Source: Chloroflexota bacterium | GTDB lineage: Bacteria; Chloroflexota; UBA11872 | DNA length: 64,000 nucleotides | Assembly: GCA_022824865.1 (NCBI GenBank) | Contig: JAJDZD010000072.1 | Location: 70,848-134,847 of the forward strand | Reading direction: 5' to 3' | Shown: piece by piece, positions 3,801 to 62,793 of the stretch | How the letters are laid out: every line of letters starts with the position of its first letter | How positions within the stretch are numbered: the first letter of the stretch is position 1 | Position numbers and translations under genes: made by a program | Notes under the pieces: model-generated | Told to the model about the DNA's origin: nothing | Seen by the model: the letters and a program-made list of their open reading frames with translations, nothing else | Databases searched by the model: none

Positions 3801-4327
3801 GTATTGGCTTTGGTCACGTCCACCAGCGTCTCGGGGTCCAGATCGCCATCCGCGTCAAGCCGGGCGGCCACCTGGACCAGCGGCGTCCCGGTTGGGTAGC
3901 GGCCTTCCAGCCCGATCTCAGCCGGACCTTCGACCTCGTGGATCATGCGCGTCAGCGTCTTGGCGTAGTGCTCGCTGCCCCGGGCCAGGACGGCGGACTC
4001 GGTCTGACCGTTACGGCCGCCGGGCGAACCTGCGGCTCCGCTGGGCCAGGCGTACTCGTCGTAGATCCAGGTCTTGAGGCCGGCGTCGCGACCCTTGCGG
4101 ACGGCAAAGTCAACCGCATCCCACCACCGCTCGCCAAAGTACGGGGTCTGCAGGCTTTCGCGCGCGTGCATGAACACGCCGCCGATGCCCTTGTCCGCGA
4201 ACTCCTTAATCTGTCGACCAAGCTCGGCTTCGTGCAGCCGGCCGTTCCAAAACCAGAGCGCCAGCGGCGCATATTCGGGGTCGGGCTGGCCAAAGGACGT
4301 TCGCAGACGATCAAGTGCTCGGCTCAC
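770..4327 (-). CDS. Large glycoside hydrolase-like protein (1185 aa), family unassigned
   Basis: Long ORF with uniform codon usage. N-terminal LALWFWNG...DEYAWPSG resembles the start of a TIM-barrel glycosidase. C-terminal VLVNNRRVDVRLWPPYRFDLSGFV resembles a GH2-type sugar-binding/galactose-binding-like domain. Confidence 0.55.
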   Translation of the reverse strand: MSRALDRLRTSFGQPDPEYAPLALWFWNGRLHEAELGRQIKEFADKGIGGVFMHARESLQTPYFGERWWDAVDFAVRKGRDAGLKTWIYDEYAWPSGAAGSPGGRNGQTESAVLARGSEHYAKTLTRMIHEVEGPAEIGLEGRYPTGTPLVQVAARLDADGDLDPETLVDVTKANTWECPEGTWRVLSFAVRTIEDRIDYLRPATVKAFLDIAYEGYAQRHQAAFGDGIPGVFFDEPYITAEPLPWTDDLPARFEQDKGYDLLTSLPLLVLRGGNNTVKVRCDFYDTVAALYEEAWFAQISAWCQRHGLEWTGHTEEHVASHPTRQGDYFRGLRHLTIPGTDHHGFRYARPRTVQAAEVKPAVSVAAMTGRPRVMAEAFGGAGWGVTLDEIRHGANLLAAYGVNMLVLHGLFYSMATAEAADDWPPSFGHQNPYWSHFKGLSDYVARLSAVVGHSRSATTVGVLYPWTSIAANTADGRPNARAREIAEAYEGLIDGLTDLSIDVQIVDERFISHGNARLENGRLRQGALTITTLVMPPTPVISPQAMRRLGAFVRSGGDLIVVGECPSGSSSGGWKHRSITRAVGTLFGKASATPTGAAVGKGRTFRVPESLPETLECVAEIVAPGTKVDSEADVLVVPRRLDGAEVLMVVNRSAVDTTPTVSTDVPGRPEVWNPETGETTALPTTGSRGKRRFTLELPPRTARFVVFDTSVRASRSRVSRPKKTPTKDLDFKTDWTFALGGGTPTGQGSIRRFELPVMRVASFSLGASRLEQLRDPQFDDADWPETWLVRAGADTIGNWRASWITGVHKHGGWAVKRKSDQHRRLRFRRSIEITEPPIKAWATFVGVDRVTVYMNGTQLGESEDWSSPVTYNIMPYLRPGQNTIVADVECVSDQPISFLFEGQVDLRSGGSIVIVSDESWDVQAPPTEVWSGLAFERDTPLAIWERGRPPVEPWRHIPLLGEPVAFPRTLVYRQRLPAGCVGIGIPNIKGTHKVYVDVRERTPDIQGIYNITTGRTLTVEIEAADFSNGILAPLELFTRPTTIALQPWADFGYGWYSGTGIYERSFELTAEQANSEVTLDLGDVRHHAEVLVNNRRVDVRLWPPYRFDLSGFVQTGSNSLRVRVSNLYANEMRWKRDETKMGNAWHRYWHEDNIEAESLVSGLLGPVQLRVNQPPPPAGGEAAG

Positions 4328-4600: not shown

Positions 4601-5689
4601 CTATTCCACCGGCCAACCGTCAGGCGTCTCGTTGGCGTCCAGGGCCGACTGAATGGCAGTGGCCGCGTCAGCCGTAACCCAGCCGGTCCAGATACCGGGG
4701 CTGCTCTTGAGCCACCAGAGGGCCACGTCATTGGTACTCGCGTCCGGGTTATCGCGCTGCCATCGGGCAATCGTCTGGTACACCTCAATGTTGAGATCCC
4801 AGGATCTCAGCATCTCCACGACGTCCGGCGCGCCAGTCAGGACGTCGGGATGTACCGCGATCAGGATTGTCGCGTCCTCGTACCCGCACGCCTTGGTGGT
4901 GAACCAGCATTCGTCGCTGTATGCCGGCTCCTTCAGCCGCACCAGGTCCAGCACCAGCGACGGATCGTTCGTACCCCACTGGTACCCCAGCCACGGCTCG
5001 CGCCGCTCATACGCGCCGTAGAGGTCGGCGTTCGCGGCCGCGCTATCCCCCGGATTGACGATGTGTACGTGATCGGTGAGGCCGTAGGCCTCGATCTGGG
5101 CGGCATTCACCTCTTCACAGGCCCAACCGATCATGCACGAGACAAGGCGCGCCTTGTCTCCGGATTCTGTCGTTTGGAACAACGCCTTGTACTGCTCGTC
5201 CTTGAGGTCCTCAACGCTGTCCAACTCTGGATACTCTTCCTGCAGGTAGGCTGGAATTACAAATGCCGACTGCCAGTCCTTGCCCAGACTTTCGCCAATA
5301 GAAACCACCTCGCCGGCCGTCTGCGCCTCCGCCCAGGCTTCATCCTGGTTTGGCAGCCAGATTTCCATTGTGATGTGGCTGTCGCCGCGGCGCAGGCCCT
5401 GAAACAACGGGAGCGTAGCGCCGAACACTACGTCGGTGGGATATCCGTAGCCCTTTTCAACGATATACTGGGCAATCCGGTTCTGTATCTGGGCGCTGGT
5501 CCAGTTGAGGTCGCTAAAGACGAGGGTCTGTTTCTCTCCGGGCGGCGCCTCGACCGTCTTTTCGACACCCACTTCCTGAGTAGCGGTCTTCTCGACAACC
5601 TGCGTCTCGCCGCACGCGGCTGCCACAACGGCGCCGGCAAAGCCTAGTGTCCCTAAGCGCAACATCCGTCGTCGGCTGATGTATTTCAT
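4601..5689 (-). CDS. proX: Glycine betaine/proline ABC transporter substrate-binding lipoprotein
   Basis: Start at ATG 5689 (MKYISRRRMLRLG, Tat/lipoprotein signal ending AAACGETQVVE), preceded by a GAGGAG RBS. OpuAC/ProX-type fold motifs are present. Last gene of the proVWX cluster. Confidence 0.8.
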   Translation of the reverse strand: MKYISRRRMLRLGTLGFAGAVVAAACGETQVVEKTATQEVGVEKTVEAPPGEKQTLVFSDLNWTSAQIQNRIAQYIVEKGYGYPTDVVFGATLPLFQGLRRGDSHITMEIWLPNQDEAWAEAQTAGEVVSIGESLGKDWQSAFVIPAYLQEEYPELDSVEDLKDEQYKALFQTTESGDKARLVSCMIGWACEEVNAAQIEAYGLTDHVHIVNPGDSAAANADLYGAYERREPWLGYQWGTNDPSLVLDLVRLKEPAYSDECWFTTKACGYEDATILIAVHPDVLTGAPDVVEMLRSWDLNIEVYQTIARWQRDNPDASTNDVALWWLKSSPGIWTGWVTADAATAIQSALDANETPDGWPVE

Positions 5690-5936
5690 GAAATAATCTT
5701 CACTCCTCGAGGGTCGACCTTGTCGGCCACCATCGCACTGAGCTGCCGCAAACATGCCTTGGTGCATCAAGACTACTGCTATGCACAACACTTCTTTGTG
5801 CAACTTGCACAACAGCAACCTGTATGCTCACGCTACCTGACGAACGCATACCTGTCAATGCAGTGGTCGATGTGTCTCTCAAATCGCCGACACAAGTCAT
5901 ATTATCCGCGTAATTACGTCAACTATTCAGCGACAA

Positions 5937-7001
5937 CTACCCTACGGATCTCAGCATTTCCTGCCGGCTGCGCGATACGGCTTGTGTAAGACGATCGATG
6001 ATGATGGCCATGAACACAATGGCCAGCCCGGCAATGGCCCCGTTGCCCGGCTGATTCTTTTGCAGCGCCCGCAGCACGTTGTCGCCCAGGCCGCCGGCGG
6101 CCACCATGCTGGCGATGGTCACCATGGACAACGCCATCAGGGTGGTTTGATTGATCCCCGCCATGATCGTCGGTAGCGCCATCGGGATCTGAACTTTCGC
6201 CAGGATTTGCAGCGGCGATGCGCCGAACGATCGAACAGCCTCGATCGTCTCGCTCGGAACCTGGCGGATTCCCAGGTTCGTCAACCGGATGACGGGTGGA
6301 ATAGCGTAGATGATCGTGGCGAAAATCCCGGCTGGCTTCCCCAGGCCAAAGGCCAGAATGCCCGGCAGAAGATAGACAAAGCTCGGCATGGTCTGCATCG
6401 CATCCAAAATGGGGCGCAGCAGGTTGTCGGCGAGCCGGCTCCGCGAACTCCAAATCCCCAGGGGCAGGCCGATCAACACGGCAGTAACCACGGCCACCAC
6501 CATCAGCGCAATGGTGTCGATCATGTTTTCCCACAGGTCCATGAAGCCCACGAAGAGCAGCGCGGCCGCCGTAAACCCCACGAGCCGCCATCCGCCCGCC
6601 GCAAAGGACAGGAAAGCCAGTCCGGTCACAATCGCCGGCCACGGCACCCATTTCAGTCCGCCCTCAATCTGGACCAATACAATGTCCACGGCTGCGCTGA
6701 GTCCGTCGAACAGCCAGCTGCCGTCCTTCGTGATCCGATCAACCGCATCGTCAATGGCTCCGCTTGTGACTTCGCGCACGGTGCGGTCCAGCGTGAGGGA
6801 ACCGCCGCCCGAGGTCGGGATTTCCGAACTGGACACCGTCGTCGGAAAGCCCATATCCACGCCCCATAGCAGCAAGCTGATCAGCAGCACGACGCCAACC
6901 GTCGCCAGCCCCGCCAGCCAGGCGTAGTGACGCCGGAGCAGGTGGATCGGCTTGTGCGGCGTCGAAGTTCGTTGGTCAGGCGCACGGTCGACTTGTGCCA
7001 T
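5937..7001 (-). CDS. proW: Glycine betaine ABC transporter permease
   Basis: Multi-TM permease carrying the EAA-type ABC permease motif region (IYAIPPVIRLTNLGIRQVP). Lies immediately downstream of the ATPase gene. Confidence 0.85.
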   Translation of the reverse strand: MAQVDRAPDQRTSTPHKPIHLLRRHYAWLAGLATVGVVLLISLLLWGVDMGFPTTVSSSEIPTSGGGSLTLDRTVREVTSGAIDDAVDRITKDGSWLFDGLSAAVDIVLVQIEGGLKWVPWPAIVTGLAFLSFAAGGWRLVGFTAAALLFVGFMDLWENMIDTIALMVVAVVTAVLIGLPLGIWSSRSRLADNLLRPILDAMQTMPSFVYLLPGILAFGLGKPAGIFATIIYAIPPVIRLTNLGIRQVPSETIEAVRSFGASPLQILAKVQIPMALPTIMAGINQTTLMALSMVTIASMVAAGGLGDNVLRALQKNQPGNGAIAGLAIVFMAIIIDRLTQAVSRSRQEMLRSVG

Positions 7002-9321: not shown

Positions 9322-9415
9322 GGCCGCCACCCGCCGTTGGCGTAGCAGTGTTCGCGAGAGTCGCCTGAACGAACGGCCGCCGACCCGCGTCGGTTTTCAC
9401 GACTGGCAGCTTGGC

Positions 9416-10132
9416 TTGATCGACGTCCAGCGCGTGTACGCGGCGCTGGACGTGGGTTGCGGCGAAGGGCGGATGACTGCAGCCCTCCGCGCGCGAGCCG
9501 CACCTGGCGCCTGGATTGTGGCCCTGGACGTGCAGCCGGACGCCGTGGCCCTCACGCGGGCACAACACCAGGCGGACGGCTTGCAGGCCAGCATCGCATC
9601 CCTGCCGCTGAGCTCCGGTCAGTTCGAACTCGTGACGGCCGGACACGTGCTGCCGTCCGCGGTGGACATCCCGCGCGCCCTGCGCGAGTTGCGGCGCGTG
9701 CTGTCCCCGGGTGGCGTCTTACTGGCTAGCGCCGACAGCGAATCGTCAGGCCGGCGACTACTGGATTGGCACGTGGAGGCCTGCCGGCGGGCCGGCTTGA
9801 CCGATCAGGCCTCGCGAGCCGCCGCGCCATCGGCCCGCGGCAGATTCACATTGGAAAACGGCGCGCACACGCTGTCGCGTACCTTCGATACGGTGGAAGT
9901 CCATGCCCGAGACGACGTGCTGGCGTTCCCTTCGGTCGACACGCTGCTGCGGCTCTATGCCACCGGGCTGCACCTGCGCGGCGCGCCTGCCTTGAACGAT
10001 CCCGGCGACGCTGACGCGCTGGCGGACAAACTGCGACCGCACCTGCGAAACATCGCGTCCGCCGCCGCCGGACCGGACGGCCGCGTGATCGTGCCTCGCC
10101 GTTCCGGTTGCTTCGTCGCTCGAACGCTCTAG
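9416..10132 (+). CDS. Class I SAM-dependent methyltransferase
   Basis: Motif I LDVGCGEG and motif post-I/II (LSPGGVLLAS) are present. Starts with TTG in the track; the frame is open back to 9314, so the N-terminus may be longer. Confidence 0.6.
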   Translation: MIDVQRVYAALDVGCGEGRMTAALRARAAPGAWIVALDVQPDAVALTRAQHQADGLQASIASLPLSSGQFELVTAGHVLPSAVDIPRALRELRRVLSPGGVLLASADSESSGRRLLDWHVEACRRAGLTDQASRAAAPSARGRFTLENGAHTLSRTFDTVEVHARDDVLAFPSVDTLLRLYATGLHLRGAPALNDPGDADALADKLRPHLRNIASAAAGPDGRVIVPRRSGCFVARTL

Positions 10133-32603: not shown

Positions 32604-32829
32604 TCTCTGACCCGCCCGTCTTCCTCCACCCTTCTCCGCACTCCCTCTTTGCTCTCACCGCCCACTCCTCTCAGCTCACTCCTTCCTCACCCCCCGTTCG
32701 TGATGATCCTGTCCTGAGCCTGCCGAAGTGGCCGGCCCGGAGTCCTCGGAATGCCGTGTCGAACCATCCCTGTCATTCCGACGGTCCCCCGAGGAATCTC
32801 GACTTTTCCCCTCCCCCTCCTCCTCTTTC

Positions 32830-37997: not shown

Positions 37998-39667
37998 GAG
38001 CCTGTTTCATAAAGTGGGTGGTGTTGCGTGACGGCGCCGCCGGCCAGCGGGCCGGCGTGGGTGGAGGTGAGGGGGTATGCCGCATCGACCGATGAGCCGC
38101 GAGCAGCAATGGCTGCTGCCTCCGAGCCTGGACGAGCTGGTGCCGGCCGATCATCCGGCCCGCTTCGTGGCCGAGTTCGTCGATGCCCTCGACGGCGGCG
38201 CCTGGGCTGCCATGGGCATCGACCTCGCCGGGGATCCCCTGGGCGCGCCGGCCTACCACCCGCGGGCGCTGCTGAGTGTCTGGGTGTACGGCTTCATGAC
38301 CGGGGTCCGGTCGAGTCGGAAGTTGGAGGCGGCCTGCCGGGAGCAACTGCCGTACCTGTGGCTGACGGGGTGCCAGACGCCGGATCACATCACCTTGTGG
38401 CGGTTCTACGCCGTCCATCGAGCCGGGATGCGGCAGCTGTTCACGCGCACGGTCCGGATGGCGCTGCGGCTGCAGCTGGTGGCGTTGGCGGTGCAGGCCG
38501 TGGACGGCACCAAAGTCGACGCCAACGCCAGCGGGGCCCGGACCTACGATTCGGCGGGGCTGCGCCGGCTGCTGGACCGGGTGGAGGGCGCGATCGACGA
38601 CCTGGAAGCGCAGCACGAAGCGGGCGACGAGCCGCGGCCAGCCCGGCTGCCGGCGGCCTTGGCCACCCGGCGGCGGTTACGCACGCAGGTGCGGACGGCC
38701 CTCGCGACGCTGGACCAGCCCACGTCGCCCACGCGGATCAATCTGACCGATGCGGACGCGCCGCTGATGAAGACGCGGCAGGGGGTGCGGCCGGCCTACA
38801 ACGCCCAGGCGATGGTCGCGCCGGTGGCCCGGGGGGCCGCGGGCGGCGGCCGCCTGATCACCGCGGTCGCGGTGGTGGATGACCCGGCCGATGCGGCGCA
38901 GTTGCCGCCCATGCTGGCGCAGGCCGAGGCCGCGACCGGTACGCCAGCGGACCTGACGGTGGCCGATGCGGGCTATCACTCGGGGGCGGCGCTGGCGGCC
39001 TGTGCGCGCCGCGGCCACCGCGTGGCCATGCCGGAGGCGCAGGCGCGGGCCCTGCAGCAGCCGTATCACAAGGACCGCTTCAGCTACGAGGCGGCGCGCG
39101 ACCGCTATCGCTGTCCGGCCGGGCAGTGGCTGCGCTTCACGCGCACGAAGACCACGCAGGGCACCGCCATGCGGCTCTACCGGGCCTCCGGGGCCGTCTG
39201 CCGGGCCTGTCCGGCCTTCGGAATCTGTACGACCGACGGGCGGCATGGACGCGGCTTGGAAATCGGGCCGCACGACGCCCTGCTACGGCGGCATCGGGCC
39301 TGGATGGCCACGCGCGCGGCCCAGCACTGGGTAGCGCAGCGCCCGGCCCTCGTCGAACCCGTCTTCGGCATCATCAAAGACCAGCAAGGGGCTCGCCGCT
39401 TCCTGCTGCGCGGGCTGGCCAATGTCAAGGCCGAGTGGGCCCTGCTCGCCACCGCCTTCAACCTGCGCACGCTCTGGCGGCTCTGGCGGGCGCCACCCAC
39501 CGAACCCGCCGGGTGGGATGCGGCGATGACCACCGCTGGCGCGCCCGCCTAGCCCCCGGTGACGCCTCAGCGCGTCGGCGCAGCCTCGTCACATCGCCGG
39601 AAGCCACCCGTCCAGGCCGCACGATGGCGTGAGCCTGCCCCCTGAATACGCCTAATGAAACAGGCTC
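37998..39667 (+). mobile_element. IS element (1670 bp), IS5/IS1182-family, with 13-bp terminal inverted repeats and 4-bp CTCT target-site duplication
   Basis: TIR GAGCCTGTTTCAT at 37998-38010 and its reverse complement ATGAAACAGGCTC at 39655-39667. CTCT at 37994-37997 and 39668-39671. Removing the element plus one CTCT regenerates the REP hairpin GGGCGGGTCTCTGACCCGCCC. Confidence 0.7.
38077..39552 (+). CDS. DDE transposase, IS5/IS1182 family (DUF772-type N-terminus)
   Basis: 491 aa. N-terminal LPPSLDELVPADHPARFV and WLTGCQTPDHITLWRF. DDE region with DAGYHS. C-terminal LLRGLANVKAEWALLATAFNLRTL is typical of this family. Confidence 0.8.
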   Translation: MPHRPMSREQQWLLPPSLDELVPADHPARFVAEFVDALDGGAWAAMGIDLAGDPLGAPAYHPRALLSVWVYGFMTGVRSSRKLEAACREQLPYLWLTGCQTPDHITLWRFYAVHRAGMRQLFTRTVRMALRLQLVALAVQAVDGTKVDANASGARTYDSAGLRRLLDRVEGAIDDLEAQHEAGDEPRPARLPAALATRRRLRTQVRTALATLDQPTSPTRINLTDADAPLMKTRQGVRPAYNAQAMVAPVARGAAGGGRLITAVAVVDDPADAAQLPPMLAQAEAATGTPADLTVADAGYHSGAALAACARRGHRVAMPEAQARALQQPYHKDRFSYEAARDRYRCPAGQWLRFTRTKTTQGTAMRLYRASGAVCRACPAFGICTTDGRHGRGLEIGPHDALLRRHRAWMATRAAQHWVAQRPALVEPVFGIIKDQQGARRFLLRGLANVKAEWALLATAFNLRTLWRLWRAPPTEPAGWDAAMTTAGAPA

Positions 39668-40001
39668 CTCTGACCCGCCCGTCTTCCGCTCGTGATCGAC
39701 GGGCCGCCCCCGCCTCTTTCGCAGGCGCGTCATCTCCGACCCGCCCGTCTTCCTCTTCCTCCGCCATCCCGGCGTCTCCGGCCGGGACCCAGCAGCACCC
39801 AACAACCCGAACGCATCCAAGCCATCCCTGGCAACCCACCCAGACCAAATGCTCCCAACCGTCCCCTCCGCCTCCCACTACTCACTGCTCTCCGCTCACT
39901 CCCTCCCCACCCGCCATCGCCCTGTCCCACGCCGCCGTCATCGGCGACGGTGACCGCCGACGCTACAATCGGATCACCGGACGGGTCACTGGAGAGCTTC
40001 A

Positions 40002-40298
40002 ATGGATGTACGCGAGGCTGCACGCACAGCCAAGACGTATATCGCCAATGTCTTTGCCGACGAGGCTATTGATGAAGTCGGACTCGAGGAAGTCGACTTT
40101 GACGACCATTCGAATCTCTGGAAGATAACCATCAGCTTCCTGCGTCCCAGGGGCGAAATGGACAGATTCCAGGCTGCGGCATCAGGCTATCCGGCCGGTA
40201 CCCCCACAATGCGTCGTTCCTTCAAGGTTGTGAACATCGACGACGGGTCCGGCAGCGTCGTTTCCGTCAAGCACCGGGTGGTGGAAGGCGCCGACTGA
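40002..40298 (+). CDS. Small acidic hypothetical protein (98 aa), upstream partner of a PIN-like gene
   Basis: GGAGAG RBS. Highly acidic (ADEAIDEVGLEEVDFDDHS). Ends 4 nt before the next ORF. No known family recognised. Confidence 0.5.
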   Translation: MDVREAARTAKTYIANVFADEAIDEVGLEEVDFDDHSNLWKITISFLRPRGEMDRFQAAASGYPAGTPTMRRSFKVVNIDDGSGSVVSVKHRVVEGAD

Positions 40299-40302
40299 CT
40301 CG

Positions 40303-40761
40303 TTGCCCGCCGCATGCTATCTCGACGCCAATCTGCTCGTGCTCCTCGTTGTCGGCGCCACGGATCAAGCCCTGGTACGTAGGCATCGTCGCCTGCAAGC
40401 ATTCGACCCTGATGACTATGAGCTTCTGGTCGAATTGCTCGGGAATTACCCGCAAGTACTGGTAACGCCAAATACACTCACCGAAACGTCCAATCTGCTA
40501 AGTCAACATGCCGAACCCCAGCGATCCAGGTTCTTTGAAACGTTCCGATCACTAATCGAAATCAACAAGGAAATAGTCGTGGAAAGCCGGCAAGCCTCAG
40601 GAAACGCATCTTTCAAGCGCCTGGGACTGACCGATGCCGCGCTTCTTGAGGTAGTCACCGCGGACACCCCGCTGATCACGGTGGACCTGGACTTATACGT
40701 GGCAGCCTTAGCAAAGTCGCCAGGTGCAGCCATAAACTTCACGCATCTCCAGCACCTCTAG
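40303..40761 (+). CDS. PIN-like domain protein
   Basis: CYLDANLLVLL (beta1 Asp), then LTETSN, LTDAALLEV and ITVDLDLYVAA acidic positions, consistent with a divergent PIN fold. Confidence 0.5.
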   Translation: MPAACYLDANLLVLLVVGATDQALVRRHRRLQAFDPDDYELLVELLGNYPQVLVTPNTLTETSNLLSQHAEPQRSRFFETFRSLIEINKEIVVESRQASGNASFKRLGLTDAALLEVVTADTPLITVDLDLYVAALAKSPGAAINFTHLQHL

Positions 40762-40987
40762 TCGTCCCCCTCTTGCGTAGGTGCCGCGTTTCCAACCGGC
40801 CTCTTCCGCGCAACCACGCCCGAAGTACGCAGAGGTCTCCCGTTACGACACCGTCCCTGCCCCCGCAGTCCTCTTCTCCCCTCCGCCTCTTTTCTCAACG
40901 CTCACTACTCTCAGCTCACTCCTTCCTCCGGCGTCCATCCTCAACCCGCCCCAAGTAAGCTAGCCCGACCCCCACGCCACCTCTCGC

Positions 40988-43936
40988 ATGCCCCGCACCG
41001 CCGAACACACCGTCAACGTCGAACTCGCCCGCCTCCTGCGCACTAGGCACCCGCGTTGGCGCAACGGCATCGGCGTTGAACAGACCGGCGTGCTGGCCGA
41101 CGCCCCCGCCCAGCGCCCCGACATCCTCATCCAGCATCCCGGCGGCCTGCCCGTCGTCATCGAGACCGAGTACCGCCCGGCTCGCGAAGTTGAACAGGAC
41201 GCCAGCAGCCGCCTCGGCGCGGTCGTCGCGGCCACCGGCGAAGCAATAGAGCAAGCCGTCGCCCTCCGCGTGCCCGTGGAACTCCGCGGCGTCAACCAGG
41301 CCCAACTGCCCCAACGCGTCGCCGAGGCCGCCTTCGACTACTGCGTCTTCACCGAGGGTGCCGAAGGCCCCGACCGCTGGCCCGCCAGCGGCTGGCTTAC
41401 CGGCGGCGTCGACGACCTCGCCGGCTTCATTGAACACACCGCCCTATCGGAGCGCCGCATCGCCCGCGGGACCTTAATTCTTGAAGTCGGCGTTCGTCAG
41501 GCCGCGGGTCGTCTTGAGGCCATGCTGCTAGAACCGGAAGGGATATTGGGCCGACGAGCGGCCGTCCTGCACCAGCAGCCCGGAGAGCAAACCGAGCGCA
41601 TGGCCATGGCGATCGTGGCCAACGCCATGACCTTTCACGCCACGCTCGTCGCAGCCAAGCTTGATGTCCGCTCGTTCGACGATCTGCGCCGGGATTCCTC
41701 GCTCAACCGTCTGAGCCGATCCATAGTCCTCGGGGAATGGCGCCGAATCCTCAGGGAGATCAACTACTGGCCGATCTTCCGGATTGCCGATGAGCTCATG
41801 TCGCCGGTCTCGGCCCGCGAAGCCTCGTCAATCCTCGAGCACTTGGCCAAAGTCGCCGACGAGCTGCACCAAATCGGCACGTCCACCACCCACGACCTCT
41901 CCGGCCAGATGTTCGGCCGTCTGATTACGGACCGGAAGTTCCTGGCCACCTTCTACACGCTTCCTGCCTCCGCCTCGCTACTGGCCGAACTGGCGGCGAC
42001 TCGTCTCGAAGTCGATTGGGCGGATTCCGTAGCTTTCACCGACCTGCGGATTGCCGATCTGGCCTGCGGCACCGGTGCCCTGCTGGCCTCGGCTTACCGC
42101 GCGGTGGCGTCCCGCCATCGCCGCGCCGGCGGCGACGATGCTCCGCTCCACGCAACCATGATGGAGCACTCACTCATCGGTGCCGACATCATGCCGGCCG
42201 CCTCCCACCTCACCGCCTCCACGCTCTCCAGCGCGCATCCCGGTGTGCCGTTTGATCGTACCCGCATACACACCATGCCCTACGGCGACCCAGAGCCTGA
42301 CGATCCCAGCGGGCGCGGTACCGCCATCGGCTCCCTGGATCTGATCCTCAGCGACGCCCAGCCGTCCCTCTTCGGTACCGGCCAGCACGCCGTCCGGGGC
42401 CGCGACCCGTCCCTAAGCGCCGAATCCTCGCCGGCGCATGTGCGGCAGGGCGACGAACTTCATGTGCCCCAGGGCTCGGTTGATCTCATGATCATGAATC
42501 CACCGTTCACCAGCCCGACAAATCACGCAGCGCAAAATAATGTCCCGATACCTTCGTTTGCTGGATTCGCCACCGGCGAGGACGAACAGCGAAGGATGTC
42601 GGAGGTACTCCGAGAGATTCGGAGGTGCCTGGAGCATCCTGTAGGTCACGGCAACGCCGGCCTCGCTTCCAACTTCATTGACCTCGCACACGCGAAGACA
42701 AAGCCGGGCGGGGTGCTCGCCCTTGTCTTGCCGCTGGCGGTGGTCTCAGGAAGCGCATGGTCATCGGCGCGGCGGATGCTGGCCCGCGACTACAGCGATC
42801 TGATAATCGTCACGATCGCGGCCGTCGGTGACACTGATCGTGCGTTCTCGTCGGACACCAGCATCGGCGAGGCGCTCGTTGTCGCAACACGGCGGGATGG
42901 CCCGGTCCACACAGACGAATCTGCGGCCGAAACGCTCTATGTGAGTCTCGGCAGGCGACCGCAGAGTCTGGCTGAGGCATCAGAGATCGCCCGCGCGGCT
43001 CGTTGTCTGCCAGATTCAGGTGGCGGGCTCTTTCAAATCGGTGACGAGACAGTCGGCTGTTTCATCCGCGCCACACTTGCTGACAGCGGATGCGCTGCGG
43101 TGCGTGAGCCGGGTGTCGCACAAGCTGCGCTTGCGGTGAGAGAGGGCTCGTTGCGCCTGCCTCGTATGCGCGAGGCGCACTCTTTGCCAATAGCTCTGCT
43201 GGCTGAACTTGGCCACCGCGGGCTGGTTCACCGCGACATCAACGGTAGAAACTCTGACGGTTCTCCCCGTGGCCCCTTCGATGTCATGCCGCGACTCGGC
43301 GCGGCGTCGGCGTACCCAATGCTCTGGCAACACGGCGCTAAACGTGAGCGGCGGCTCCGCGTAGAACCGGATACGGAGGGCCGCGTTCGGCAAGACTGTG
43401 AAACCAAAGCCATTGACGTATGGGAAACAGCAACTCGGCTCCATTTGACCCTGGACTTCCGCCTCAACTCGCAAAGCTTGGCCGTCTGCCTCACCCCCGA
43501 ACCTTCGATCGGAGGCCGAGCCTGGCCTAACTTTCGGCTATTGAACGCCGCAGGCGAAGAGGCGGTCGCGCTCTGGGCGAACAGCACCTTGGGACTGATG
43601 AGCTTTTGGTTGACTGGCGGGCGCCAGCAGCAGGGTCGCTCGATCATGACCATTTCTCAGTTGCCCGAACTGCCAACACTCGACGTACGCCAACTCAGCA
43701 TGGAACAGATCGAGCGATCCCACCGCATCTTCGCCGACTTCCTCGACTATGAATTCCTCCCCGCCAACGAGGCCTACCACGACCCTGTCCGCCAGGCACT
43801 CGACCAGGCCGTCCTCATCGACCTCCTCGGCCTCCCCGAATCCATCCTCGATCCCCTCGCCCTCCTCCGCCTTCAATGGTGCGCCGAACCCACCGTCCAC
43901 GGCGGCAAATCCACTAAGCCCCCTGAGCTACCGTAG
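40988..43936 (+). CDS. Large N6-adenine DNA methyltransferase fused to an HSDR_N-like nuclease-fold N-terminal domain (Type IIG/IIL-like single-chain restriction-modification candidate, 982 aa)
   Basis: N-terminal RPDILIQHPGGLPVVIETEY resembles the HSDR_N PD-(D/E)xK-fold domain, but the Lys is replaced. Motif I LRIADLACGTGALL. Motif IV VDLMIMNPPFTSPT (NPPF). I-then-IV order indicates gamma class. About 450 aa of C-terminal domain could be a target-recognition domain. Confidence 0.65.
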   Translation: MPRTAEHTVNVELARLLRTRHPRWRNGIGVEQTGVLADAPAQRPDILIQHPGGLPVVIETEYRPAREVEQDASSRLGAVVAATGEAIEQAVALRVPVELRGVNQAQLPQRVAEAAFDYCVFTEGAEGPDRWPASGWLTGGVDDLAGFIEHTALSERRIARGTLILEVGVRQAAGRLEAMLLEPEGILGRRAAVLHQQPGEQTERMAMAIVANAMTFHATLVAAKLDVRSFDDLRRDSSLNRLSRSIVLGEWRRILREINYWPIFRIADELMSPVSAREASSILEHLAKVADELHQIGTSTTHDLSGQMFGRLITDRKFLATFYTLPASASLLAELAATRLEVDWADSVAFTDLRIADLACGTGALLASAYRAVASRHRRAGGDDAPLHATMMEHSLIGADIMPAASHLTASTLSSAHPGVPFDRTRIHTMPYGDPEPDDPSGRGTAIGSLDLILSDAQPSLFGTGQHAVRGRDPSLSAESSPAHVRQGDELHVPQGSVDLMIMNPPFTSPTNHAAQNNVPIPSFAGFATGEDEQRRMSEVLREIRRCLEHPVGHGNAGLASNFIDLAHAKTKPGGVLALVLPLAVVSGSAWSSARRMLARDYSDLIIVTIAAVGDTDRAFSSDTSIGEALVVATRRDGPVHTDESAAETLYVSLGRRPQSLAEASEIARAARCLPDSGGGLFQIGDETVGCFIRATLADSGCAAVREPGVAQAALAVREGSLRLPRMREAHSLPIALLAELGHRGLVHRDINGRNSDGSPRGPFDVMPRLGAASAYPMLWQHGAKRERRLRVEPDTEGRVRQDCETKAIDVWETATRLHLTLDFRLNSQSLAVCLTPEPSIGGRAWPNFRLLNAAGEEAVALWANSTLGLMSFWLTGGRQQQGRSIMTISQLPELPTLDVRQLSMEQIERSHRIFADFLDYEFLPANEAYHDPVRQALDQAVLIDLLGLPESILDPLALLRLQWCAEPTVHGGKSTKPPELP

Positions 43937-44084
43937 ATTTTTCCGTCGCGCACTCAATTCCAGCAACGAAACGGAAGAGAACGATGGTGATCACTTGACA
44001 CCAGGCACGAATCCTAGCGACTCATCTATTTCGATACAGGACCTTCATGAAGATGAACTAGAGCATGTAATCAGAGTTTTTTCA

Positions 44085-45029
44085 ATGCGTATCGGATTGG
44101 ATCGGATCATCAAGAGCGCATCCGTCTCAAAGATTGTTCCAATAGACGATTTACTCGAAGCACTATCGTTGGATGAATGGCCAGCTGAAAGCGCAACACT
44201 TGACGAGCTTATATGGTGCTCGGAGCCACTCACACATGAGGACTTCAAGCGCTTACGTGAATATTCTGTGCACTGGCAGAAGACTAGTCAAGACTGGCGA
44301 CTTTGGATAGCTCGTGAGCCTTCGTTGCCGGCAGACGATAGAATGTTCTTTGACAAGCGTCGAATAATGATTAGTATATTCACCGTATATCGGATCTATA
44401 TAGATGCAGCGCATCAGAAACAATATCGATCCGCCCTGAGGCTTTGGCACCTAAAGAGATTGGCACCCACGATCCTTTTTACTGTAATTGTTCTAATTGT
44501 TATAGCCCTCAACAGCTGGCAGGCATCCGAGACGCTTACGCTGGATTTCTGGAAGACTATTCTGTTTCAGTACGTGGCATTTGGCGCGGTAATCTACACT
44601 TCACACTACATGACAGGAAAGCTCGGCTTTATCCACGGAGTGCTAACACTAACTGTCGTTTGGTTGTTCCCTTTCCACTTTTTCTTATTTGGAACGATTG
44701 AGGCTCTTGCAATCGACGTGCCACAATGGCAAACCGAACTGATGTCTTTAGGACTTAGCGTGCTAGTTGGGTTATTGATGGCGGAATTAAGGCACCCTTT
44801 AAAGAGCGTCAGTCAAATGCATTCAGAAGGCGGATGGGCGATAGTTTACAAAAATGTGTTGGCGACTCCGGCACTCGTGATGGCGCCGACCTACGGAGCC
44901 ATTAAGATAGTTGAATACTTGATCAGGGTATCGGTTCACAACAATCAGTTGGCAATTGTAGCAGTTCCTATCGGACTAATTGTCATCGTGGCGAGTGCGG
45001 AATTGATACGACGTGAGCTAAGTCGTTAG
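44085..45029 (+). CDS. Hypothetical membrane protein (N-terminal soluble domain plus 5 TM helices) encoded in an AT-rich insert
   Basis: First in-frame ATG after the upstream stop is 44085. GC content of 43937-45330 drops to roughly 45-48% against about 67% background. Five hydrophobic helices in the C-terminal 200 aa. Confidence 0.5.
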   Translation: MRIGLDRIIKSASVSKIVPIDDLLEALSLDEWPAESATLDELIWCSEPLTHEDFKRLREYSVHWQKTSQDWRLWIAREPSLPADDRMFFDKRRIMISIFTVYRIYIDAAHQKQYRSALRLWHLKRLAPTILFTVIVLIVIALNSWQASETLTLDFWKTILFQYVAFGAVIYTSHYMTGKLGFIHGVLTLTVVWLFPFHFFLFGTIEALAIDVPQWQTELMSLGLSVLVGLLMAELRHPLKSVSQMHSEGGWAIVYKNVLATPALVMAPTYGAIKIVEYLIRVSVHNNQLAIVAVPIGLIVIVASAELIRRELSR

Positions 45030-45289
45030 AAGGTGGGCTGAGCAATACAATGGATAGGAGGCTATAGCGACACGGATTGATAGACCGTGCTTTCAACGAC
45101 AGAATCGATGGAGATATGGCATTCGGACCGAAGCGTGAGCGCACAACGACTAACACTTGAGAAGATTGCAAACCACTCGAAGCGCAGAATGGATGAAATC
45201 GTTATATCCGTTGACTCTCGATCGATTCATAAGTCGAAGCGAGCGGTGCTCCCGTCGCTGAAGACTGGTTTCGTTCGTCGATTACGTGA

Positions 45290-45649
45290 TCAGCCTTCGA
45301 CTATCGAGTCAGGATGGCGGCAAGGAACCCTATAAATTCCAAGGACATTCAAGACGCTGACCAGCAGTAGGCTGACTATCCAGGTCTTGAGATTCTCAAC
45401 ATCGGCCTTTGTCGCGCACTGCCGAAACAATTCACCGCGGAGCCGATCAAACTCCTCGCGTAACTCCGCCCGCGTCAACGGCGGATCCCCGGCGTTCAAC
45501 TCGGCCGTTCGGACGCTTCCCCTCCTAAGTGGCGCAATCACCGCGCCCGCTGAAGGATTCCCAAGCTGCCCGAACAATCCTCTCGCTCGATCACACCCGC
45601 CCGACCCCGCCGGGACCTCGCCTCCACGCCGGCATCCCCGGCGCCGCAC
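45290..45649 (-). CDS. Small coiled-coil protein with C-terminal TM anchor, paralog A (start uncertain)
   Basis: Shares GNPSAGAVIAPLR...PLTRAELREEFDRLRGELFR.CATKAD...LK.W followed by a hydrophobic helix with 46706-46981. Its partner starts at the position aligned to Leu here, so a non-ATG start or the upstream ATG at 45649 are both possible. Confidence 0.45.
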   Translation of the reverse strand: MRRRGCRRGGEVPAGSGGCDRARGLFGQLGNPSAGAVIAPLRRGSVRTAELNAGDPPLTRAELREEFDRLRGELFRQCATKADVENLKTWIVSLLLVSVLNVLGIYRVPCRHPDSIVEG

Positions 45650-45704
45650 CGCCCCATCTATTCGCTTGATCAGTCAGGTCCGATAGACTGAATGACTCAC
45701 TTCG

Positions 45705-45980
45705 ATGCGAGTCCGTGAAATGGCCACGCTCCAGGTCGGCGTGCCTCCAAATGACCCCGAAGTCATGCTTGCCGAGATGCAACGCGAGCTGGATGACGTT
45801 CGTTGGATCGAGGACAACATGGCCGCGCTCGTCGAGGAGTACGGCATCAAGTTTGTCGCGGTCCGTCACCGCAAGGTTATTGGCTCGTCACACCGACTCA
45901 CCCTGCTTCTTGAAGACCTCAGGGAGCGCGACATTGCCCCAGGATCGGCCTCCATCGAAGTGCTCTACCGCCAGGAATAG
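45705..45980 (+). CDS. Small hypothetical protein (91 aa), upstream partner of a retropepsin-like protease
   Basis: Ends 6 nt before the protease ORF. No family recognised. Confidence 0.45.
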   Translation: MRVREMATLQVGVPPNDPEVMLAEMQRELDDVRWIEDNMAALVEEYGIKFVAVRHRKVIGSSHRLTLLLEDLRERDIAPGSASIEVLYRQE

Positions 45981-45986
45981 CCGACC

Positions 45987-46463
45987 GTGGCAATCCTTGG
46001 CACGGCAAGGCCTCCGAGCCCGGGGGCAAGTCCCGCGCCGTACATCCCTACCTGGGTCTACGCGCGCTACCCGGGAGCCGACAGGCGGCAGCACGTGACG
46101 GTTTCCTTCATGGTCGACACTGGAGCCGACCGAACCGTTCTGTCCCTTCGCAAGGCACGCGATCTCATAGGCGCCGATTGGAACGCTGTCTGTCAGACAT
46201 CCGTCACCCTCGAGGGCATTGGTGGTGCTCAGCCCTATTGGGAAGTTCCCATGCGGATCTGGTTCAGGGACGCCTCGGTCCAACGCTTTGTCTCTGTCGA
46301 GTCGCAAGTCCTGGTTCCGTTCTATTCAGAAGTTCAGGACTTGGCCGAACGCTCGAGTGAGCGCCGAGGTCGCGAACCGATCTCTTTACTGGGTCGCGAC
46401 GTCTTCGGCCACATGCGTCTCGAATTCGACCTTTCCCAGCCTGAGCAAGTAGTTCTGCGCTAG
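45987..46463 (+). CDS. Retropepsin-like (clan AA) aspartic protease, small single-domain bacterial/archaeal type
   Basis: FMVDTGADRTVLS contains the D-T-G-A catalytic signature of retroviral-type aspartic proteases. Size (158 aa) matches the small AF_0612-like family. LLGRDVF near the C-terminus is like the dimerisation strand. Confidence 0.55.
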   Translation: MAILGTARPPSPGASPAPYIPTWVYARYPGADRRQHVTVSFMVDTGADRTVLSLRKARDLIGADWNAVCQTSVTLEGIGGAQPYWEVPMRIWFRDASVQRFVSVESQVLVPFYSEVQDLAERSSERRGREPISLLGRDVFGHMRLEFDLSQPEQVVLR

Positions 46464-46705: not shown

Positions 46706-46981
46706 CTAGCGAGTCAGTAGAGTTGCGATTACCCCGGCCGTTCCAAGGAGATTAAGCACAACGACCAATAAGACACCAACCAGCCACGCTTTGAGATCCG
46801 CAAAGTCCGCCTTCGTCGCGCAGTGTCGAAACAGCTCACCACGGAGCCGATCAAACTCCTCACGCAACTCCGCCCGCGTCAGCGGGGCAGCCGAGGTCTT
46901 CGAGTCTGCCACTCGGACGTTTCCCTTCCTAAGTGGCGCAATCACCGCGCCCGCTGAAGGATTCCCATGCCGCCCGAACAA
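46706..46981 (-). CDS. Small coiled-coil protein with C-terminal TM anchor, paralog B
   Basis: MFGRHGNPSAGAVIAPLRKGNV...PLTRAELREEFDRLRGELFRHCATKADFADLKAWLVGVLLVVVLNLLG. Same architecture as 45290-45649. Confidence 0.5.
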   Translation of the reverse strand: MFGRHGNPSAGAVIAPLRKGNVRVADSKTSAAPLTRAELREEFDRLRGELFRHCATKADFADLKAWLVGVLLVVVLNLLGTAGVIATLLTR

Positions 46982-47299
46982 TCCTCTCGACCAATGCTAC
47001 CCAAACAACCCCGCCAAAGTTCCGGACGACCCCACCAGCGGTTCACCTTGATCGCAGCTGCGGCCGCTCTCAATCCCTTGTACCTTCCGCCGGCCTTGGA
47101 TTGACCAAGGCCACAGAGAGCGGGCCGGGACAGACCGAAAATCCCCGGGTCCGGTGAGACCGGAGGAGAGCAGGGTCGTCCCGGCCCTGACGCTGCCCCA
47201 GAGCCTGCAACCGCAAGGCTTAGTGCGGGGTCAACGTCCCTCGAGCCTACCCAATCGCCCCACCACCCCAAATCCCCGTCGGCATCCATACGCCCAGGC

Positions 47300-48990: not shown

Positions 48991-49014
48991 AAGAGTTTTT
49001 TGGAAAAAACTCTT
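48991..49014. promoter_or_regulatory. Perfect AT-rich palindrome AAGAGTTTTTT-gg-AAAAAACTCTT, 210 bp upstream of the isomerase/oxidoreductase/aminotransferase operon
   Basis: 11-bp inverted repeat with a 2-bp spacer, embedded in 65-70% GC pyrimidine-rich DNA. Candidate operator. It is a poor intrinsic terminator because the stem is AT-only. Confidence 0.4.
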
Positions 49015-49225
49015 ATGCGCGCGAGGCCCCCCATTTCGACCCCTCCAGCCACCCGCGTCAGCACCCACCCGCGGCTGCGGCCGCCGTTTCCCGTTCCTCC
49101 GTCCCCGTCTTCTCTCACTGCTCACTGCTCTCAGCTCACTCCTTCCGCCCCACCCGGCCTCGGTTGACATCCCACCCCACCCCGGCACGATTGACGCAGC
49201 CCGCATCCCGGAGCGCAACACCTCC

Positions 49226-55738: not shown

Positions 55739-55842
55739 TGCGGCGTGGGCGCTCTGGCGTTCGCTCAGGGCAGTCGTCAGGTCGCGGGCCCCCGACGCGT
55801 CGAACCGCCGGGGCGCGGACGTGCACGCGTAGCACGCCCACG

Positions 55843-55986
55843 GCGCCTTCTCCCTTCCGGACTGTACCGTCGGCTCCGGATTCGCACCGGATCAGCCGGC
55901 GAACGCCGGCTCGCGGGCTTGGCCTCGGGCCTCACCGCCGGTCGGGAATTTCCAGGCGCGAGCGCCGGGATCACCCTGCCCCGAAG
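55843..55986 (-). ncRNA. FMN riboswitch (RFN element) leader of the rib operon
   Basis: Minus-strand sequence reads GGGGCAGGGTGA..GGAAATTCCCGACCGGCGGTGAGG...GGTGCGAATCCGGAGCCGACGGTACAGTCCGGAAGGGAGAAGG. It contains the conserved RFN cores GGGCAGGGTGAAATTCCCGACCGGCGGT and GATTC.GAGCCGACGGTA.AGTCCGGA.GGGAGAAGG. Located about 105 nt upstream of the ribD start. Confidence 0.75.
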
Positions 55987-56090
55987 GCACGTATGTGCGT
56001 GGGTCAAGCATACGCCCGTGCATCGCGGCGTCCAATCGCCGCCGTATGCTCCGACAACGAACATACGACTGTCGGCCGGAGCGAGGCGTG

Positions 56091-62554: not shown

Positions 62555-62698
62555 GCCAGGCCGAGCGTCCTGAGACGCTTTGGCTGGTGATCCCGCTCTT
62601 GTCCAGAGTCCTTTGCACGTCAAGGAACAGGGGCTGGAGCGTGTCTTACGCCGCATGGCAGCGCTTCCCGCCCCTCGCCCGTTGAGGGACTCCCCGGG

Positions 62699-62793
62699 CG
62701 GAGGTGCATGGGAGTCGAACCCACCTGGAACGCTCACCAGCGCCCCACAACGGTTTTGAAGACCGCGAGGACCACCCGGCCCCGTCCACCTCC
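62699..62793 (-). tRNA. selC: Candidate selenocysteine tRNA (tRNA-Sec, anticodon UCA), 95 nt
   Basis: Minus-strand sequence is GGAGGTGGACGGGGCCGGGTGGTCCTCGCGGTCTTCAAAACCGTTGTGGGGCGCTGGTGAGCGTTCCAGGTGGGTTCGACTCCCATGCACCTCCG. Acceptor is 8 nt (one G.G mismatch at pair 8). 6-bp D-stem with 4-nt loop. Anticodon loop CTTCAAA is identical to E. coli selC. Long variable arm. T-loop TTCGACT is identical to E. coli selC. Discriminator is G. Confidence 0.55.

Follow-up and report, generated by a model that had tools for sequence, protein, structure and literature searches.

An AT-rich block of 1.4 kb, at positions 43937-45350 of a 64,000-nucleotide (nt) stretch of a Chloroflexota genome (contig JAJDZD010000072.1, positions 70,848 to 134,847 of the forward strand; hereafter the window), encodes a multi-pass membrane protein directly downstream of a restriction-modification (RM) gene. 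Sequence comparison among related loci indicates that this block behaves as one exchangeable cargo gene, in a slot placed immediately 3′ of the RM gene as part of a small, mobile RM islet, and this arrangement forms part of the best explanation of the locus. The low GC of the gene appears to be a trait of its whole family, a maintained property of the mobile cargo pool and not a sign of recent arrival, and the genomic context makes the protein a tentative candidate for a second-line anti-phage factor.

The AT-rich block and its membrane-protein gene

The GC content of the block was 46.9% (0.469) against a mean of 65.5% (0.655) for the window, and in a sliding scan the lowest-GC 1414-nt segment of the whole 64 kb began at 43929 (z = -5.0), the minimum thereby falling on the block itself. 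GC dropped from 0.65-0.67 to 0.40-0.47 in ~100 nt past the stop codon of the RM gene (43934-43936), with an onset at most ~30 nt from that codon, and went back up at ~45340-45450. This compositional break is far beyond chance, and it bears out an earlier description, made from the letters of the window without database searches (the sequence-only reading), of an AT-rich block beginning at the upstream stop codon. The spacer between the two genes was 79% identical to that of L002, the locus carrying the orthologue of the membrane gene, and a sigma-70-centric scan detected neither a promoter-like nor a terminator-like site in it. In the AT-rich tail past the membrane gene (45030-45336), an Rfam search for RNA elements returned no match.

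The reading frame of the membrane gene is open from 43749, and the stretch before the upstream stop codon overlaps the upstream gene out of frame. Past that stop codon, the candidate starts are a TTG at 43995 (344 amino acids, aa) and an ATG at 44085 (314 aa), the latter picked by public gene callers to give the 314-aa protein P0001. The 30 additional N-terminal residues were conserved in 20 of the 20 aligned family members, L17 and V25 being invariant and E21 nearly so, and M31, encoded by ATG 44085, was replaced by T or K in homologues. The same residues belong to a confidently predicted helix in the AlphaFold2 (AF2) model (predicted local distance difference test, pLDDT, 85-92), and their substitutions relative to the L002 orthologue were distributed as 4/0/6 over the three codon positions, with position 2 avoided. 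Moreover, TTG 43995 is preceded by the Shine-Dalgarno-like sequence GATGGTGATC (43983-43992), complementary to the 3′ end of 16S rRNA, which L002 retains, core included, together with a GTG where the window has TTG. Because of the conserved N-terminus, its pLDDT, the codon-position pattern and the Shine-Dalgarno-like sequence, TTG 43995 is favoured over ATG 44085 as the predicted true start, and the bounds of 44085-45029 given by the sequence-only reading were revised upstream.

Along the coding sequence (CDS) 43995-45029, the window and L002 were 87% identical, with 45/15/73 differences by codon position, 0.088 nonsynonymous (dN) and 0.351 synonymous (dS) substitutions per site and a dN/dS of 0.25 (by domain of the encoded protein, head 0.32 and membrane part 0.22). 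Judged by these substitutions, the gene is genuine and evolves under purifying selection. The opposite proposal, that it is a spurious open reading frame (ORF) or a decaying pseudogene within AT-rich junk DNA, could draw on the atypical TTG start, on the lack of a family match and on the fact that the neighbouring ORF 45087-45335, which the sequence-only reading had listed as a second small gene candidate in the block, is indeed spurious: compared with L002 it showed 66% identity, 31/23/31 differences by codon position without periodicity and a 1-nt indel at 45114, it had no counterpart in the other compared loci, and it was rejected as a gene for evolving like non-coding DNA. The dN/dS of 0.25, the strong third-position bias, the full-length homologues of the same architecture in ~40 clusters and the confident AF2 model all stand against that proposal for the membrane gene, which is exceedingly improbable and refuted for practical purposes. 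For annotation, this implies that the public 314-aa call is 30 residues short and that the adjacent 82-aa ORF should not be annotated.

The AF2 model of the 344-aa protein, built on 20 family sequences, reached a mean pLDDT of 82 and presented a small alpha/beta head (helices 19-33, 35-41, 50-56, 69-74 and 121-132; strands 76-78, 91-96 and 101-106) followed by long helices. Family-averaged hydropathy placed six membrane segments at ~152-176, 183-206, 212-237, 244-266, 284-308 and 313-338. Lys/Arg clusters were found ahead of the first membrane segment and in a C-terminal RRExxR, and since both ends are rich in these residues, an N-in/C-in topology is predicted. The model thus shows an inner-membrane protein with a putatively cytoplasmic head of ~150 aa and six transmembrane (TM) helices, both termini being predicted to be cytoplasmic. 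The general plan of a soluble N-domain followed by TM helices, proposed from the sequence alone, was maintained, and the counts were corrected from five helices to six and from 110 to ~150 aa. The head was the better conserved part, with a mean pairwise identity of 33% against 20% for the membrane module, and all invariant or near-invariant residues were located in it (L17, E21, V25, G34, L57, W62, E71, W74, S76, L87, S91, W94, W104, I105, P112 and Y132).

Searches of the window protein and all 20 aligned members against Pfam, NCBIfam, PADLOC and PHROGs revealed no consistent family match; in PADLOC the window protein had none and one of the 20 members matched, at E = 0.1. A sequence-profile search of the PDB returned nothing, and Foldseek of the AF2 model gave no match at E <= 0.001, the best ones (0.64 in PDB and 0.24 in BFVD) being long-helix noise. 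The earlier remark that the protein has no recognisable family therefore holds, and its relatives are confined to an orphan family. In a word-indexed search of 5.8 billion proteins, three matches were recovered, namely the protein itself, an 83% orthologue and a 40% homologue, and a profile-seeded search of the word index recovered four proteins only. An exhaustive profile search of 1.84 billion representatives yielded 44 proteins at E <= 1e-3, 36 of them at E <= 1e-10; the complete ones were mostly ~330-370 aa long with the same architecture, the remainder were fragments, and at least one of the 44, the repetitive Ig-like protein P0164, was taken as a false positive. Scans with family patterns of GTDB representative genomes, JGI metagenomes and IMG/VR found no member, nor did tblastn against INPHARED phages and PLSDB plasmids. 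By these searches, the membrane protein represents a rare, previously undescribed orphan family of ~40 clusters. A prophage superinfection-exclusion protein was also considered and rejected, given that INPHARED, IMG/VR and PHROGs were empty of relatives and that no phage genes adjoin the gene in the window.

The restriction-modification gene and the slot behind it

The gene upstream of the block (Table 1) had been taken by the sequence-only reading for a methyltransferase (MTase) acting as a sensing module. The AF2 model of its 982-aa product (pLDDT 75, predicted template-modelling score 0.82) retrieved in Foldseek the enzyme BpuSI (3s1s) as top match, with E 3.8e-11 over 1089 alignment columns, followed by DrdV, LlaBIII, BrxX/PglX of BREX systems, and BsaXI; apart from PglX, the fold matches were to RM fusions of Type IIG/IIL/ISP over their full length. 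The residues D357-L-A-C-G-T-G363 (motif I) and N504-P-P-F507 (motif IV) were invariant in 30 homologues, as were P44-D45...E59-T-E61, which read PD...ExE with E and not K at the third position. An E-x-E is used by BamHI. The C-terminus was near-invariant among homologues. By predicted fold and motifs, the neighbour is accordingly a putative complete and self-contained Type IIG-like RM enzyme, a fusion of nuclease, MTase and specificity parts and not a sensing MTase. It resembles BpuSI, MmeI and DrdV (Type IIG/IIL) in being a single chain of ~980 aa with an N-terminal nuclease-like domain, in its gamma-class N6-adenine MTase with DLACGTG and NPPF, and in its variable, recombining C-terminal region, and it differs from them in its marginal sequence similarity and in its nuclease motif, PD...ExE rather than ExK, its activity being putative.

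At the sequence level, Pfam gave sub-threshold MTase matches only, phmmer against the PDB an E of about 0.9 and PADLOC weak MTase_II/mad2 matches, and this RM family is not covered by Pfam or NCBIfam. It is nonetheless a large one, with 2401 matches at E <= 1e-5 and no fewer than 560 relatives among the GTDB representative genomes, mostly marine and sponge-symbiont-type metagenome-assembled genomes of many phyla. Members were observed in Chloroflexota, Latescibacterota, Alpha- and Gammaproteobacteria, Acidimicrobiia, Gemmatimonadota, Spirochaetales and Synechococcus, with 2-4 copies in some genomes. The nearest relatives (72-85% identical) were Chloroflexota without exception, and the host of the window is probably a sponge-associated Chloroflexota. 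Two accounts of sponge symbionts report them to be rich in RM and other defence functions (PMC5649159, PMC5099237).

The membrane gene was not constant behind this RM gene. The closest RM relatives, L004 (87%), L005/6 (83%) and L007 (81%), all lacked it, as did L016 and L018; in L004, 77 bp occupy the place of window positions 43916-45660, between the RM gene and a homologue of window 45661-45986, and in L007 a host peptidase gene directly follows the RM gene. An orthologue present in all relatives at the same place, which would have spoken for an ancient insert, was thus not encountered, and the AT-rich segment is, from this comparison of loci, accessory among relatives. Where the membrane gene was present, its alleles were far more divergent than the gene preceding it: the RM proteins of these loci were 73-87% identical (67-84% for the partial, frameshifted L002 copy) and the adjacent membrane proteins 32-46%, except for the window/L002 pair (83%). 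Similarly, the DNA of the window and L008 was alike through the RM gene up to 43914, lost similarity over the membrane gene and regained it at 45298, within the small convergent ORF that follows, so that the divergent alleles are framed by two conserved flanks, the RM 3′ end and this ORF.

The RM gene itself is a mosaic. That of L002 was ~100% L008-like over window positions 41513-42400 and closest to L010 over 42400-43700, and it resembled the window most only over the final ~200 nt, next to the window-type membrane allele; the membrane alleles did not co-vary with the variable RM segments. In the comparison with L004, the RM gene had an identity of 0.91-0.95 at the 5′ end, fell to 0.63-0.68 over 41440-41800 and stood at 0.95 over 43070-43660, and this mosaicism is consistent with shuffling of specificity domains.

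Other loci carried alternative cargo in the same place, such as a 91-aa ORF plus a retropepsin-like ORF in L005 and L018 or the 91-aa ORF plus Mrr in L004. Taken together, the pattern of absences, the divergent alleles, the conserved flanks, the RM mosaic and the alternative cargo therefore point to a recombination-driven cargo slot anchored on the 3′ end of the RM gene. The window holds two such slots in succession, the first consisting of the RM gene, the membrane gene and copy a of a small convergent ORF, and the second of the 91-aa and 158-aa ORFs and copy b (Table 1).

Further occupants of the slot were observed. In L021 (9028-9921, minus strand) and L022 (3414-4283, minus strand), an unrelated AT-rich gene (0.46-0.51 GC) for a 289-297-aa protein with N-terminal TM helices lies convergent with the RM gene, directly past its stop codon, and a Pfam search of the L021 protein found no match. 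In L019, an AT-rich ORF for a 128-aa TM/coiled-coil protein takes the same position (9407-9793). The 158-aa ORF of the window matched Pfam Asp_protease_2/RVP (E 4.6e-5), and the pair that it forms with the 91-aa ORF, which in L005/6 and L018 comes straight after the RM gene and in L004 is reduced to the 91-aa ORF, may be a two-gene module. The two small convergent ORF copies make up a direct repeat, D1 (275 nt, 78% identical; 45337-45611 and 46741-47015), their product carries LTRAELREEFDRLRGEL, then ATKAD and a TM helix, and they had no match in Pfam or NCBIfam. Homologues of this ORF were found downstream of the RM gene in L002, L004, L005/6, L008, L011 and L018, with the membrane gene present or not, and its role as a dedicated partner of the membrane gene was rejected on account of the loci in which that gene is missing.

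Table 1. Coordinates and strands of the features of the RM gene, the AT-rich block and the adjoining slot (window positions)
Feature	Position	Strand	Description
Putative Type IIG-like RM fusion	40988-43936	+	982 aa: N-terminal PD..ExE nuclease-like domain, gamma-class N6-adenine MTase, variable C-terminal region
Spacer, site of the GC collapse	43937-43994	+	58 nt; Shine-Dalgarno-like GATGGTGATC at 43983-43992; direct sequence reading
Orphan membrane-protein CDS	43995-45029	+	344 aa, predicted TTG start; head aa 1-150 = 43995-44444; six-helix module aa 151-344 = 44445-45026
AT-rich non-coding tail, fast-evolving	45030-45336	.	contains the spurious ORF 45087-45335
Small convergent ORF, copy a	45290-45649	-	coiled-coil + C-terminal TM; right-hand conserved flank of the slot
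Second cargo set	45705-46463	+	91-aa ORF 45705-45980 + 158-aa retropepsin-like aspartyl protease ORF 45987-46463; blastn/tblastn
Small convergent ORF, copy b	46706-47015	-	also a copy of repeat D1

No mobility signature was found at the borders of the block: no repeats bracketed 43937-45336, no insertion scars, att or attC sites were present at its ends, the different alleles shared no junction motif, and the nearest transposase lies at 38077-39552. That gene, a DDE transposase (DUF772/DDE_Tnp_1/DDE_Tnp_1_6) of unusually high GC (0.72-0.79), ends 1.4 kb upstream of the RM gene, and the interval between them (39650-40988; GC 0.52-0.61) holds only ORFs without family assignment. Concerning the islet as a whole, a perfect 24-nt palindrome, AAGAGTTTTTTGGAAAAAACTCTT, occurs as a single copy in the window at 48991-49014, between GC-rich flanking arms. 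Each of 10 Chloroflexota RM loci with differing chromosomal neighbours (L002, L004, L005/6, L008, L010/15, L011, L016 and L018) has exactly one copy of the same palindrome, oriented alike and 2.6-5.3 kb downstream of its RM gene; the palindrome may delimit the mobile RM islet on the right or serve as a putative protein-binding site. A C/T-rich motif, CTCACTGCTCTCAGCTCACTCCTTCC, is repeated on the plus strand at 32661-32686, 39881-39906, 40901-40926 and 49121-49146, within repeats of 50-60 nt; the RM and AP_endonuc_2 genes start ~60-80 nt past the copies at 40901 and 49121, respectively, and the motif, also present in L004, L005, L010 and L019, resembles a common leader or promoter element. As islet borders, the C/T-rich repeats at 40879 and 49099 were rejected, since the motif also occurs at 32661 and 39881, each copy being 60-100 nt before a gene start.

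The linkage of the family to RM genes was assessed in the neighbourhoods of 11 of the ~40 family clusters, and in 8 of these 11 contexts the membrane gene was downstream of a Type IIG-type RM gene. A member lies directly after the ~980-aa RM gene in the window, L002, L008, L010/L015 and L014, with gaps between the two genes of 58 nt in L002, 79 nt in L008 and ~184 nt in L014; the nominal gap of -4 nt in L010 probably reflects a start called too early, the true one being estimated at ~75 nt. In L011, the member is 1.9 kb downstream of the RM gene. P0124 bears an N-terminal read-through peptide that matches in kind the out-of-frame 3′ end of the RM gene, and therefore its gene would also follow such an RM gene. 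In L012, a member 27% identical to the window protein by BLASTP is downstream of a different, MmeI-type enzyme (Pfam MmeI_Mtase, Eco57I and TaqI_C), and the surrounding island includes cNMP-TIR, ParE-like, PIN, PLD-helicase and GmrSD genes. Most of the RM-linked cases belong to a single Chloroflexota lineage and were recovered by a few metagenome projects, in part from low-coverage assemblies, and the RM gene of L002 is frameshifted.

Several rearranged or additional genes were observed in these contexts. Directly after the RM gene of L011 there is an AT-rich gene (6292-6888) for a 198-aa headless paralogue, covering only positions 147-341 of the hidden Markov model (HMM) of the family, and an extra partial TM module stands upstream of the full-length protein in L009 and in the case of P0166. 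In L003, an AT-rich SIR2_2 gene (2659-3993, minus strand; 0.47-0.50 GC) lies by an rve transposase, 2.4 kb from the stand-alone member P0003, and likewise represents defence-type cargo of low GC in a genome of high GC.

Family-wide low GC and candidate roles in defence

The sequence-only reading had taken the compositional discontinuity as the mark of a recent horizontal acquisition. In fact, the low GC was shared by the ten members examined, down to 25% aa identity: their GC was 0.46-0.51 and their GC at third codon positions (GC3) 0.48-0.54, in loci of 0.57-0.67 GC. The window CDS itself had a GC of 0.461 and a GC3 of 0.487. Recoded with the codon preferences of ten host genes (GC3 0.86), it would have 60.4% GC instead of the observed 46.1%, so that synonymous codon choice accounts for ~14 of the 19 missing GC points. 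Between the window and L002 orthologues, dS has reached 0.35 with unchanged composition, the synonymous sites of the family are saturated (25-46% aa identity) and its members were found only in high-GC contigs. Such a low GC, kept across saturated divergence in high-GC hosts, would therefore be an equilibrium property of the gene or of the mobile pool and not a timestamp. Other cargo genes of these slots were likewise low in GC. Candidate causes are long residence in an AT-biased mobile pool and selection, either for silencing or for keeping a toxic membrane protein at a low level of expression.

This bears on the explanation offered by the sequence-only reading, in which a recent insertion from an AT-rich donor would have brought in the abortive-infection executioner of an MTase 'sensor'. 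The abrupt break in composition, the absence of the gene from the nearest relatives and the position of a membrane protein next to a defence gene are all as that explanation expects. It is, however, rendered quite improbable by the low GC of the whole family at saturating divergence in high-GC hosts, by the window/L002 dS, by the failure to find a member in any low-GC, phage, plasmid or viral contig searched or to find insertion scars and flanking repeats, and by the nature of the neighbour, predicted to be a complete RM enzyme and not a sensor. AT-rich genomic islets and defence-island cargo are well known in high-GC genomes, and the block is like them in that its GC is below that of the host (0.469 against 0.655), in its patchy presence among relatives (absent from L004, L005/6, L007, L016 and L018) and in its insertion-sequence, toxin-antitoxin and defence neighbours. 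It differs from them in that its low GC is constant over a deeply diverged family in high-GC hosts, and in being a 1.4-kb block without flanking repeats or an integrase of its own.

The executioner idea, detached from the recent insertion, is plausible from the context, given the RM linkage and the dense defence island of L012, and the six-TM module and such linkage to defence genes are features shared with known membrane effectors of abortive infection or exclusion. From this context, the membrane protein may be a second-line anti-phage factor that acts at the membrane by abortive infection or exclusion, a reading which we favour tentatively and hold at somewhat less than even confidence. The conserved head would be the input domain and receive a signal, the helical module would be the output and perturb the membrane, and the gene would be expressed via read-through from the RM gene or from a weak promoter of its own. 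The stand-alone TM-module paralogue of L011 suggests that the membrane part may be active by itself.

Several observations weigh against a role in defence. It has no homology or structural match behind it, and no known defence, pore, channel or transporter family matches the protein by HMM or predicted fold. The better conservation of the head, as seen in the alignment, is unlike what would be expected of a fast-evolving phage sensor. No RM gene accompanies the members of L003, L009 and L013 in the DNA examined, and conversely the family occurs in only 2 of 79 RM loci of representative genomes, from which it follows that the RM enzyme works without the membrane protein. Moreover, all RM-linked cases except L012 may descend from one ancestral pairing, so that the independent associations may be as few as two, and co-transcription with the RM gene is only putative, considering the gaps of 58-184 nt and the doubtful overlap in L010.

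Some of these points would be accommodated if the protein were an ordinary accessory membrane protein (transporter-like, or related to stress or symbiosis) that hitchhikes in a recombination-prone slot behind an often-transferred RM gene. The cargo of the slot differs widely, from the 91-aa and retropepsin-like ORFs to Mrr and unrelated membrane proteins, PADLOC revealed no homology to a defence family, and three members are not beside an RM gene. Yet Type IIG genes of two different families have divergent alleles of the membrane gene behind them, one family member sits in a dense defence island, genes typical of defence or toxin-antitoxin systems stand nearby (Mrr, PIN, ParE-like, SIR2_2), and no transporter fold was matched. 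A non-defence hitchhiker is rather unlikely, and is the most serious competitor of the anti-phage reading.

Known defence systems offer partial parallels to an anti-phage role. Multi-pass modules combined with a cytoplasmic domain are found in RexB, in TM effectors of the CBASS and Thoeris type, in SLATT proteins and in KwaA of Kiwa, and the window protein is like these in its layout, its small size, its patchy distribution and its defence-island neighbourhood. It differs in having no PADLOC HMM match and no fold match in PDB or BFVD, which leaves the effector role at the level of a candidate. Concerning the bond to an RM locus, the closest parallel is PrrC, described in accounts of the system as an optional second-line effector tied to a Type Ic RM locus (PMC1484252, PMC3458546) and, in one of them, as held latent by EcoprrI and activated by the T4 inhibitor of EcoprrI (PMC1484252). 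The membrane gene shares with PrrC the asymmetric linkage, in which an optional second-line effector accompanies an RM locus that is functional without it. The differences are considerable: PrrC is a soluble protein made of an ABC-ATPase and an RNase (anticodon nuclease), and the window protein has six TM helices and an unrelated head, with no homology to PrrC; neither the ABC-ATPase N-domain nor the anticodon-nuclease C-domain was found in it by Pfam or in the AF2 model. In addition, the PrrC-type linkage holds for 8 of the 11 contexts and not for the three members without an adjacent RM gene, and contact with the RM enzyme is hypothetical here. The window protein may therefore be said to resemble RM-linked or island-borne membrane effectors by logic and context only.

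By analogy with PrrC, the protein might even act as a guard of the RM enzyme. The head would bind the adjoining Type IIG enzyme and the membrane module would thereby be silent, until a phage anti-restriction protein freed the module, with collapse of the membrane potential and abortion of the infection. The asymmetry between 8 of 11 contexts linked to RM genes, of two unrelated RM families, and 2 of 79 RM loci carrying the family fits such a guard, as do the conservation of the head, the near-invariant RM C-terminus and the PrrC precedent of latency with EcoprrI. Conversely, the stand-alone members of L003, L009 and L013, the lack of a head in the L011 paralogue beside the RM gene and the membrane alleles that do not co-vary with the variable RM segments all argue against it, and a guard is improbable. 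Slightly more doubtful still is a combined proposal, in which the family would be a new type of guard, a membrane-embedded suicide effector whose head monitors Type IIG enzymes, or the product of their failure, and which fires when phage anti-restriction factors disable them, its low GC being kept by selection rather than reflecting recent transfer, for example for silencing a toxic membrane protein or holding its expression tightly low in high-GC hosts.

Other window features and significance

Away from the islet, the second lowest-GC patch of the window, at 5617-6069 (<0.52 in 300-nt windows), covers the 5′ end of a 405-aa ORF (4601-5818, minus strand), a gap of ~120 bp and the 3′ end of an ORF for a 354-aa multi-pass membrane protein (5937-7001, minus strand). 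Judged from the sequence without a family search, these ORFs look like an ABC-type substrate-binding protein and a permease, and the patch is not an island. The plus strand has a strongly negative GC skew over 17-49 kb. A flavin mononucleotide (FMN) riboswitch (55841-55992, minus strand; 96 bits) and a tRNA-Sec gene (62697-62793, minus strand) are ordinary host features.

The locus shows how a conserved and widely transferred RM gene can be the fixed anchor of a cargo slot with fast turnover. It also provides a counter-example to the equation of low GC with recent acquisition, with a family near 48% GC in genomes of 57-67% GC, and such a stable low GC suggests that composition is under selection or that an AT-biased pool of mobile genes persists. 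If the membrane protein were a defence factor, an undescribed membrane effector would join the small set of second-line systems tied to restriction enzymes, and its source would be uncultured symbiont lineages of the Chloroflexota, which are thinly covered by defence catalogues.

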